From: a virus
Taxonomy: Duplodnaviria > Caudoviricetes
IMG/VR virus record: IMGVR_UViG_3300046786_000226
Coordinates: 10,822-74,821 of that record
DNA length: 64,000 bases
Direction: 5' to 3' (one strand)
Made by a program: the position numbers and the translations under genes. The notes below the pieces were generated by a model. It searched no databases. It had not been told where the DNA came from and saw only the letters and a list, made by a program, of their open reading frames with translations. Below, one piece after another: positions 10,210-48,073 of the stretch (the first letter of the stretch is position 1; every line of letters starts with the position of its first letter).

Positions 10210-10995
10210 GCGAATTTTATTATTCTTTGCGACTGCGGTTGCCAAAACACTTAGGTCTTGTTCGCACCATTCTGCAAATTTCAACATAGCATTGGTGTCT
10301 TTTGGAAAGCACATACCACCAAAACCATAATCGCCATCTGGACCTGGAACTTGCATATGACTATTACCAAGTCGTTTATCTTGACTAACTGCTTGTTTAA
10401 TGTTATCCCAATTACATTGGTTATCTTCTGCTAGTTTGGCCATTTCGTTCATAAAAATAACTTTGGTAGCTAGAAAACTGTTTATAGTATATTTGGCAAA
10501 ACTAGCTTCGCCAATACTACAATGTGTCACGGAATTTAGATTTGGTTGGCTCATGCGAATGATTCGTTCTGCTTCATTTCTATATGCCATAGTTGAACCA
10601 CCAATGATAGCAAAACTTCCATTAACATAATCATTGACAGCATTTGCCGCAGTTAAGAATTCTGGAGCATGTACTAAGTTGGTATATGAGCATTGCAATC
10701 CTATATATACACTGGGTATAGCAGTTACTTTACTAATGATAACACCTTTAAAGCGTACCATTTCTAATTGCTTTAGAACATCAACTAATATACTAGTATC
10801 ACAGCTTCCATCATTACGTTGCGGACTTGGTACACAGACAAATACCGCGTCGTAGTTTATTATGTCATTATATGTTGCCATCCAACCTTTAGCTGGGTCT
10901 ATGGCCAATAGTTCTACATCAGAGTTATTGATAAAAGAACTATGTATAGCACCGCCGACAAAACCCATTCCTATGATTGCTACTTTTGTTTTCAT
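10201..10995 (-). CDS. UDP-glucose/GDP-mannose dehydrogenase family protein (short form)
   Basis: IIGMGFVGG Rossmann motif, FVCVPSP, IISKVT, PEFL, KYTINSFLATK, GFGGMCFPKD. Confidence 0.9.
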   Translation of the reverse strand: MKTKVAIIGMGFVGGAIHSSFINNSDVELLAIDPAKGWMATYNDIINYDAVFVCVPSPQRNDGSCDTSILVDVLKQLEMVRFKGVIISKVTAIPSVYIGLQCSYTNLVHAPEFLTAANAVNDYVNGSFAIIGGSTMAYRNEAERIIRMSQPNLNSVTHCSIGEASFAKYTINSFLATKVIFMNEMAKLAEDNQCNWDNIKQAVSQDKRLGNSHMQVPGPDGDYGFGGMCFPKDTNAMLKFAEWCEQDLSVLATAVAKNNKIRLT

Positions 10996-45190: not shown

Positions 45191-45916
45191 TTATTTAGTT
45201 TGTGCTATTCTATCCAGGATTATTTTAGCAAAATTCATATTGGATTTTTCTCCTGCATGGCCTAAATCCCTGGCATGGTCAATTATAGAAATTTCATCGC
45301 TGTGAGCATATATGAATTTAATATTGAGATGATTACATATCATTTCAATGGCTAACTTATGTTTCAAAGAATGCAATACAACGTTTTCATGTAGAGATAA
45401 CCAATGTTCGTAAAAACTTCTAAAAGAAGGCTCTCGATATTGATCCGGTTGTATAGTAGCCCAAAAATCATAGATCCTGCGCTTGGCACTATATAAAGCC
45501 ATTCTACCCGGTGGCGGTTCTAGTAATACAACTATTTTAGGTTTTACTTGCGGTATATAATGATTAGCCAATCTGAATGCAGTGTCAGGTCCGCATCCCG
45601 GCATGCCTAAATTAAAATTCTTCAGATCCAATGTTTTTGCAACGTTATATGCCCATGTACTTTCATAGGGCAAGCCAATGCCAGCAGTATGACTACATCC
45701 AAAAAACATTATATTGTCGTCATGACTAAACTCTTCTGAACGAAATCCATAGCCATTAAATTTGTATGTAAATTGTCTACCTACCCAGTTATTTTGGCTC
45801 ATTTGATCATAATTATTTTCAATATTATACAAGTAAAGTTCTTCGGTGTCATTGGGTAGCCATGATAGTTCTTTATCTATATTATGAATGTTTTGATGAT
45901 GTATTGTATTAAACAT
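45191..45916 (-). CDS. SGNH/GDSL-like hypothetical protein
   Basis: FNGYGFRSEEF, FFGCSHTAG, NLGMPGCG, DLGHAG. Confidence 0.55.
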   Translation of the reverse strand: MFNTIHHQNIHNIDKELSWLPNDTEELYLYNIENNYDQMSQNNWVGRQFTYKFNGYGFRSEEFSHDDNIMFFGCSHTAGIGLPYESTWAYNVAKTLDLKNFNLGMPGCGPDTAFRLANHYIPQVKPKIVVLLEPPPGRMALYSAKRRIYDFWATIQPDQYREPSFRSFYEHWLSLHENVVLHSLKHKLAIEMICNHLNIKFIYAHSDEISIIDHARDLGHAGEKSNMNFAKIILDRIAQTK

Positions 45917-45930: not shown

Positions 45931-45935
45931 GTCAT

Positions 45936-45961
45936 AAAAAAAGCACCTTGCGGTGCTTTTA
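45936..45961 (-). terminator. rho-independent terminator after the phasin-like gene
   Basis: AAAAGCACC-GCAA-GGTGCTTTTTTT. Confidence 0.85.
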
Positions 45962-45973
45962 AAATAATTTAAA

Positions 45974-46246
45974 TTATTTTTTAGTTGTAGCTGTATAAGC
46001 TTTCATAATGCCTTCACCAAATTTAACATAGTCAAATTTCATAGCATTTTGAACTGCTTTAGTTGTTTCACTGGCCAATGTTGTAGCTGTATCCATACCG
46101 ACTTTAGCGGCTTTTTTAGTGTATTCGGCTTGTGCATCAATGAATGTGTTCATTGCTTCTGCCACTGTTTCGTTTTGAACAAAGGTCTTAACGAAAGTTT
46201 TCTTTGCACCTTGAATGGTGTCGATTGATTGATCTACTGTAAACAT
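45974..46246 (-). CDS. phasin-like amphipathic helical protein (tentative)
   Basis: 90 aa, Ala/Thr/Lys-rich helical; AAGGAG RBS; monocistronic with its own terminator; PhaR-like box upstream. Confidence 0.45.
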   Translation of the reverse strand: MFTVDQSIDTIQGAKKTFVKTFVQNETVAEAMNTFIDAQAEYTKKAAKVGMDTATTLASETTKAVQNAMKFDYVKFGEGIMKAYTATTKK

Positions 46247-46320
46247 AATTTTCTCCTTAATGTAAGCAAGTAATAAAATAGCTCTATCTTAGACGCTATA
46301 AGTTTATTATAACATTATTT

Positions 46321-46337
46321 ATGTTGCGACGCAACAT
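46321..46337. promoter_or_regulatory. perfect palindromic operator, PhaR-like
   Basis: ATGTTGCG-A-CGCAACAT, 75 bp upstream of the 46246 ATG. Confidence 0.6.
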
Positions 46338-47356: not shown

Positions 47357-48073
47357 TCAACTTATAAAATTTAATATCTTTTCAGTAGTTGCGCGATGTG
47401 AAAGTATTCCTGGATGCGATAAATCTCTTGCCAAATCATTTTCTATAAAACAAAAATCAGATTCTATGTTAAAATTTAAAAATTTAATACCCTGTGTATT
47501 ACACAAATGTTTAATTGCTAGTTGATTCTTTAATTGATTCAATCTGGCATTTTCTTCATGCATGATCCATTTTAAATAAAAAGAATTAGTCATCGCATAA
47601 TTCTGAACTGTGTTGTTTACTCTGAAATGAATACTACTTCCTTCTGGCTCAGCTGTTGTTATTTCTAGTCTTGACTTATCCGGAGACATTAATAGCACTA
47701 TATCAGGTTTAATTCTCGAAAGCCATGTTTCTGCTAATCTAAATGCGGTGTCATTGGAAGATCCCGACAATGCTAAATTACAACAATTATAGCCTAATGC
47801 CCTGGATACTTGCGTGGGAAATATATCTTCATTTCTTAGTGCCGTACCAAAAGTTATACTACATCCTAAAAATAAGATGTTTTTACTTTCTTTGAATTCC
47901 TCGCATCTAAAACCGTGACTGTTAAACTTGTATTTGATAGTTTTATCTATCCATCCAGCACTATGTAATTCTTCAAATCGATGTTCTAAGTTATGGCGGT
48001 AAAGATCCTGTGTATCTCCCAAATGCCATTCTGTTTCTGTACTGCGAAATTGTAAATTGTCAATTACTAACAT
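47357..48073 (-). CDS. SGNH/GDSL-like hypothetical protein (paralog of 45191)
   Basis: FNSHGFRCEEF, FLGCSITFG, NLALSGSSND, DLSHPG. Confidence 0.55.
   Translation of the reverse strand: MLVIDNLQFRSTETEWHLGDTQDLYRHNLEHRFEELHSAGWIDKTIKYKFNSHGFRCEEFKESKNILFLGCSITFGTALRNEDIFPTQVSRALGYNCCNLALSGSSNDTAFRLAETWLSRIKPDIVLLMSPDKSRLEITTAEPEGSSIHFRVNNTVQNYAMTNSFYLKWIMHEENARLNQLKNQLAIKHLCNTQGIKFLNFNIESDFCFIENDLARDLSHPGILSHRATTEKILNFIS

Follow-up and report, generated by a model that had tools for sequence, protein, structure and literature searches.

The window analysed here, a stretch of 64,000 nucleotides, was taken from a 74.8-kb IMG/VR record (IMGVR_UViG_3300046786_000226, positions 10,822 to 74,821) that is 21% complete by CheckV. 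A T4-type DNA polymerase, tail fibres and a Lon-like protease are encoded in the window and relatives of the gene described below lie on viral contigs of 320–378 kb, and the window was therefore taken to be a fragment of a giant T4-related phage. The source is an uncultured giant T4-related phage of fresh water (lake), and searches of cultured-phage databases returned no DNA or protein match for the locus. The features of the locus, which is centered on a short gene on the minus strand and the palindrome upstream of it, are collected in Table 1.

Table 1. Features, in part predicted, of the 90-aa gene and its control region, in window coordinates.
Feature	Position	Strand	Basis and remarks
Intrinsic terminator, AGCACC-loop-GGTGCU (6–9 bp GC stem, loop GCAA, then U7)	~45935..45961	minus	folding
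90-aa gene (stop included)	45974..46246	minus	ORF list, sequence
Shine-Dalgarno AAGGAG	46253..46258	minus	6 nt before ATG; read from sequence
5' mRNA hairpin (window copy diverged, weak)	46278..46299	minus	covariation in relatives, folding
Extended -10 TGTTATAAT (TGnTAYAAT), predicted	46306..46314	minus	motif; TAYAAT >90% conserved in 65 regions
Candidate T4-type late promoter CATAAATA (type NATAAATA)	46316..46323	minus	first three bases are the palindrome's last three
Candidate PhaR-type operator, perfect 8+1+8 palindrome ATGTTGCG-N-CGCAACAT (N = A here), core TGCRNYGCA	46321..46337	both	sequence, consensus, weight matrix
Second palindrome, TTAGTGA-N4-TCACTAA	46353..46370	both	perfect; z -3.45; immediately 3' of the stop codon of the 135-aa gene upstream

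The original prediction described a monocistronic gene with a strong ribosome binding site and its own terminator, and each element was located. AGGAG is kept in nearly all of the 65 distinct upstream regions that were aligned, and the terminator folds at -13.8 kcal/mol (z -4.68), with none of 200 shuffled sequences folding equally well. Most relatives also carry a hairpin followed by a T-run 3' of the gene, with unrelated stem sequences. The gene unit is thus self-contained, having its own promoter and terminator, and its neighbour genes vary between relatives. In the window it is flanked by two paralogues of ~240 aa, both on the minus strand (45191–45916 and 47357–48073; 35% identity, E 2e-45), which have in common a GCS-x-T-x-G motif that recalls SGNH/GDSL hydrolases and received no Pfam or PHROG assignment. 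In many relatives a nested terminator-promoter module was seen 3' of the gene, with TTGACC just before the 5' arm of the hairpin and TATAAT in its loop; the example at L040:5295-5345 has a 16 bp hairpin (dG -24 kcal/mol, z -4.9) followed by a T-run, and the module occupies the same position in L017, L018, L020, L025, L034, L038, L043, L056, L064, L068, L077, L081, L082 and L084.

Relatives of the gene were confirmed in IMG/VR in 131 cases, of which 80 were kept as loci; locus L103 (genome G028) was excluded from all analyses. Homologues fall into more than 973 clusters at 90% identity, almost all on viral contigs, and into 382 clusters at 50% identity, and all proteins in the clusters are 50–160 aa long. 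The gene is present in four of four near-complete relatives (320–364 kb). A close-relative scan of 185,579 bacterial genomes, one per species, gave only three matches, all on MAG contigs of a single study; these contigs carry the labels Polynucleobacter and Haliscomenobacter and may be phage DNA that was mis-binned. Neighbouring clusters in the protein atlas are 88–100% viral. An alignment of 50 sequences with identities as low as 53% has 18 invariant columns and 21 that are nearly so, and the C-terminal motif KFDYxKFGEGIMKAY is nearly invariant in the family. The cluster counts, the scarcity of bacterial matches, the viral neighbours and the conserved columns together indicate a viral and strongly constrained family.

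A perfect palindrome had been reported 75 bp upstream of the gene beside a TAAATA element, and it was found there, 75 nt before the ATG with AAATA adjoining. It is the single copy in the 64-kb window even when three mismatches are allowed, and it also holds the window's single TTGC-N3-GCAA. The site was compared with published binding sites of PhaR, the regulator of phasin genes. DNase footprinting gave the consensus TG[N]TGC[N]3GCAA for the Herbaspirillum seropedicae homologue PhbF (PMC3206438), and the window site, TGTTGCGTCGCAA, fits it exactly. For Cupriavidus necator PhaR the consensus is YTKNTGCRNYGCANMAR, in which positions 1–4 and 7 from the centre are almost invariant (PMC12849132); the window site agrees at 15 of 17 positions, these included, and differs in the outermost pair alone. 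The Sinorhizobium meliloti core YGCRNYGCR, which has AT-rich arms and was established by EMSA with mutated sites (PMC12542648), is fitted as well.

Comparison was then extended to the promoters of 28 phaP genes from Burkholderiales genomes, and for 26 of them the 300 nt upstream hold between one and four such boxes. The box of one phasin gene in a Polynucleobacter MAG (L086), TGTTGCGTCGCAACA, is identical to the 15-nt core of the window site, and that of another host phaP gene (L110), ATGTTGCACTGCAACAT, is the full 17-mer found at phage loci L017 and L022. An extended form of the motif, TKNTGCRNYGCANMA, occurs at 25 sites in 6.2 kb of sequence upstream of host phaP and at none in the remaining 85 kb of the host loci; among distinct phage upstream regions (9.1 kb) it occurs at 28 sites, in 28 of 65 regions, and in the rest of the phage loci (607 kb) at five. 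A weight matrix was built from the 47 boxes upstream of Burkholderiales phaP only (consensus TTTTGTTGCAATGCAACAAAA; T at -7 in 90% of the boxes). On this matrix the window site scores 20.1 bits, the 99.9th percentile of the null being 15.1, where the flanking positions alone count as independent evidence since the cores in the matrix were selected with the consensus expression.

Conservation of the palindrome upstream of homologues was among the checks proposed with the original prediction, and both position and core sequence are kept across relatives. Of the distinct homologous phage promoters, 49 of 65 exceed the 99th percentile of the null on the host-box matrix; all 49 sites lie 43–105 nt before the ATG, and 47 of them at 81–105 nt. 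The other 16 have no convincing box, some having a TTGAT -35 instead, and a few relatives carry a variant box with 2-nt spacing. The motif occurs in one or two copies per genome in the four near-complete relatives, one always being at this gene, and the sole intergenic copy in each of the four is the one at this gene. The two extra copies, in G043 and G044, are intragenic and most likely due to chance. A role as a general phage promoter motif was ruled out, the palindrome being unique per genome. Agreement with the consensus, identity with phaP boxes and near-uniqueness in the genomes lend strong comparative support to the prediction of a PhaR-type operator.

In the 65 upstream regions the elements keep a fixed order: the stop of the preceding gene is followed by TTAGTGA-N4-TCACTAA and an A-run, then come the PhaR box and, at about half of the loci, (C/T)ATAAATA; these are followed by TGnTAYAAT or TATAAT, the stem-loop, TAAACTYGCTTAA and, last before the ATG, AGGAG. 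In the window the box ends 6 nt before the predicted extended -10 and occupies the -35 position relative to it, and it overlaps the predicted late-type promoter. At three loci (L037, L075 and L082) the box instead lies in the spacer of a predicted promoter TTGAC(T/A)-N17-TAnAnT, with the canonical TTGAC(T/A) upstream of it. Host phaP promoters are laid out as PhaR box, ~5 nt, TTGACA, 17 nt, TAnAAT, ~8 nt and a second PhaR box; usually two boxes thus flank the TTGACA -35, the second at the start site, and the pair is 53–58 bp apart (L086 and L087 of the Polynucleobacter MAG; other host loci, L089–L116), whereas the phage promoter has one box, over the -35 position. An extended -10 without a -35 was also considered as an escape from an AsiA-type anti-sigma factor and was set aside, no AsiA having been found, although the search matched nothing, its controls included, and so carries little weight.

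The element CATAAATA was taken to be a late promoter from general knowledge of the late promoters of T4. ATAAATA lies 12–37 nt upstream of seven other minus-strand ORF starts (3356, 25971, 26758, 31606, 35053, 37828 and 45916), and for this reason NATAAATA is plausibly the T4-type late promoter of this phage; in the window 9 of 17 copies of ATAAATA are within 80 nt upstream of an ORF. Several of the ORF starts preceded by ATAAATA have no recognisable Shine-Dalgarno sequence. Three bases of the late-type copy at the locus belong also to the PhaR box, so that a repressor bound there could shut off both predicted promoters.

Downstream of the -10, the relatives carry a stem-loop made of a 6-bp stem, a bulged G, a 4-bp stem and a 5-nt loop AUAGG (e.g. 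L004:5944-5973 and L017:4944-4973). Its start is mostly 5–9 nt 3' of the -10, at some loci as far as ~24 nt, and so falls at or close to the predicted mRNA 5' end; the conserved TAAACTYGCTTAA follows the stem-loop. Over its ten pairs, 89.9% of cells are paired, compared with 77.4% in shuffled alignments and at most 51% when the pairing is slid; cells changed on both sides number 73 against 22 in shuffles, and one pair is seen as CG, GC, AU and UA with no unpaired case. The hairpins of relatives fold at -15 to -18 kcal/mol. A search of the region against Rfam gave nothing near any gathering score. The stem-loop would be an mRNA-stabilising 5' hairpin, and its conserved bulge and loop may be recognised by a protein. 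The second palindrome lies ~32 bp from the centre of the PhaR box, roughly at -62 from the predicted start site, and is kept in about half of the related loci; TAGTG-N6-CACTA has exactly one copy in each of five phage records, always here. It may be the site of another regulator or a 3' hairpin of the upstream mRNA.

PhaR (PF07879), PhaC and PHB depolymerase (PhaZ) were looked for in the five phage records, of which four have a completeness of 92% or more, and none of the three was found. A phage that brings its own PhaR or PHA enzymes was accordingly dropped for the phages searched, and since these encode no PhaR, it is PhaR of the host that would have to bind. In the sampled Burkholderiales phaR adjoins the box-bearing phaP. 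PhaR was not found in the Polynucleobacter MAG bearing the phage gene, a MAG that may be incomplete. As a clue to the hosts of the clade, the candidate operator would point to PhaR-bearing, PHB-storing bacteria, probably Burkholderiales.

The product had been described as amphipathic and rich in Ala, Thr and Lys, in agreement with its sequence and with an all-helical AlphaFold2 model (mean pLDDT 85.9), a two-helix hairpin of a short helix (residues 2–22) and a long one (26–88). It had also been called phasin-like, and a comparison with the phasin families had been proposed. The comparison gave a confident helical hairpin, and the description stands in part, on sub-threshold and indirect Phasin_2 signals, with the Pfam, NCBIfam and hhalign results against it. 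The window protein has no phasin match at E≤1 in Pfam and NCBIfam and no meaningful match in PHROGs, and it does not reach the curated cut-off of PF09361 (Phasin_2; 24.9 bits). Among 96 diverse family members Phasin_2 is the sole recurrent Pfam family: a few distant members score 16.2–22.6 bits against the same cut-off, and four of them align in one register (residues ~26–74 to profile positions 48–98; 18.6–22.6 bits). TIGR01841 is matched by one of the 96 (E 0.0044), and NCBIfam assignment of this set was rejected as noise. With an HMM of PhaP, two family members score 19.0 and 16.7 bits, where the maxima of reversed and shuffled controls are 10.5 and 12.4. Profile-profile comparison by hhalign (A1 and A3) with the 28 PhaP proteins extracted from the Burkholderiales genomes gave probabilities below 1%.

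Structure searches (Foldseek against the PDB, and VIA-align wide) returned generic helical hairpins with no phasin standing out, so the fold cannot discriminate, and a profile search of PDB sequences returned nothing. The best match in BFVD, and the best structural match of the window protein, is A0A6J7WGJ6, 'Phasin [uncultured Caudovirales phage]' (74 aa; probability 1.0; TM 0.63/0.76; 35% identity over 69 columns). It probably belongs to the same wider viral family, and its name is assumed to be an automatic annotation; a literature search found no study of it. The nearest named clusters in the protein atlas are Phasin_2, PHB_acc (the PHB-binding domain of PhaR) and PHA_synth_III_E (PhaE), all below 0.9, and are leads only. 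The window protein has the small, non-enzymatic, amphipathic alpha-helical character of phasins, a feature that is not specific to them. Judged on sequence, 'phasin-like' is used here as a working hypothesis, and the protein is no demonstrable member of a phasin family.

For proteobacteria of fresh water and soil, PHB granules are a major store of carbon and energy. The promoter of the phage gene carries the palindrome that PhaR binds at real phasin genes, and the phage therefore probably switches the gene according to the carbon store of its host. The reading favoured here, with moderate confidence, is that the gene is wired into the PhaR/phasin circuit of the host and that its product acts at the surface of the PHB granule. 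Transcription would start from the extended -10 and possibly from an overlapping late-type element, with the PhaR operator in place of a -35. When no PHB granules are growing, PhaR of the host would be free to occupy the palindrome, blocking RNA polymerase; when PHB is being made, PhaR would be drawn onto the granules and the gene transcribed. The 5' stem-loop and the strong Shine-Dalgarno sequence would then give a high output of a small amphipathic two-helix protein, which would most likely bind the granule surface as phasins do. There it could displace host phasins, PhaR or regulators of the depolymerase, and a granule-bound product would feed back on its own promoter. The purpose of the protein may be the mobilisation or remodelling of stored host carbon, as had been proposed.

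Host PhaR may instead gate the gene as a mere read-out of carbon status, with a product that is no granule coat and acts, for example, as a chaperone-like or regulatory factor, or as a decoy binding PhaR or another host protein. This is unlikely on balance and still the most serious alternative, as the operator evidence is independent of what the protein does, the phasin homology is below every curated threshold and the most conserved part of the protein, the C-terminal motif, resembles a site of protein-protein contact more than it does a generic amphipathic surface. It has to be set against several weak and partly independent signals that lead to PHA-granule proteins and to no other family, and against phasins being the strongest PhaR targets in bacteria (PMC12542648).

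The palindrome could also be the operator of a phage regulator, or a DNA or RNA hairpin such as a terminator for antisense transcription, with an abundant phage protein unrelated to PHA as the product. A T-run follows the palindrome on the plus strand and a terminator scan lists it there as a terminator-like site, the arms show compensatory changes (ATGTTGC/GCAACAT and ATGCTGC/GCAGCAT), the second unique palindrome nearby makes a phage-specific regulator conceivable, and the protein can be assigned to no family. The true terminators 3' of the gene vary freely in sequence between loci, however, whereas here the stem sequence itself is conserved (TGC...GCA, with T at -7 and A at +7); moreover the palindrome's hairpin is weak (dG -6.9, z -1.8), no plus-strand gene reads into it, and the identity with host phaP boxes, including flanks that the search did not impose, would be coincidence. 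This explanation is accordingly given a low probability. That gene and promoter are a neutral passenger captured from a host, the operator being a relic with no role in infection, is very improbable: the unit is self-contained among differing neighbours and its operator is indistinguishable from those of hosts, but the invariant and nearly invariant columns (18 and 21) speak of strong constraint, hundreds of clusters and each of the four near-complete genomes contain the gene, the close-relative scan of species genomes matched just the three MAG contigs, and promoter, UTR hairpin and box hold their positions across the clade.

The preferred reading, control by host PhaR of a granule-surface protein, joins two things already known, the PhaR-phaP circuit and boxes for host factors on genes of T4-like phages. 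With the circuit of C. necator (PMC12849132), H. seropedicae (PMC3206438) and S. meliloti (PMC12542648), in which the regulator is PhaR (PhbF/AniA), the phage unit has in common the operator sequence (TG-N-TGC-N3-GCAA / TGCRNYGCA with T/A at +/-7), its overlap with the core promoter, in the phage a predicted one, and a small amphipathic helical protein as the downstream product. It differs in standing on a lytic-type giant phage without PhaR, PhaC or PhaZ of its own, in the single box described above, in a protein of 90 aa rather than the ~170–200 aa of PhaP that falls below the Phasin_2 thresholds, and in the addition of a conserved 5' mRNA stem-loop and a second palindrome. The nearest phage parallel is the PhoBR/Pho-box system of T4-like cyanophages (PMC10976474, and the work on P-SSM2 pstS cited there), where a host-factor site likewise stands on a phage gene and expression of a T4-related phage follows the nutrient state of the host. 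The sensor in that case is a two-component activator responding to phosphate, whose binding was demonstrated by EMSA, whereas here it would be a granule-titrated repressor. The cyanophage study also cautions that predicted host-factor boxes in phage genomes are unreliable predictors of binding (PMC10976474).

A literature search found no PhaR operator described on a phage gene. To our knowledge, the handling or exploitation of the PHB reserve by phages is essentially unstudied. The wider proposal, put forward tentatively and at less than even confidence, is that giant freshwater phages of a widespread clade read the PHB reserve through host PhaR and make a granule-surface protein of their own for a takeover of the granule proteome, for instance to make stored carbon available for phage replication or to reset the PhaR regulon. 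Experiments would have a concrete and simple handle in a 17-bp site and a protein of 90 aa; the operator provides a host clue for an uncultured jumbo-phage clade, and the protein might serve as a small, natural tag for binding PHB. A conserved phage gene with an operator for host PhaR would demonstrate sensing of the host's storage state by phages, by analogy with the Pho-box control of cyanophages but with the signal passed through a granule-titrated repressor. If the proposal is true, the virus would be the first shown to draw on a storage-polymer organelle of bacteria together with its sensor.
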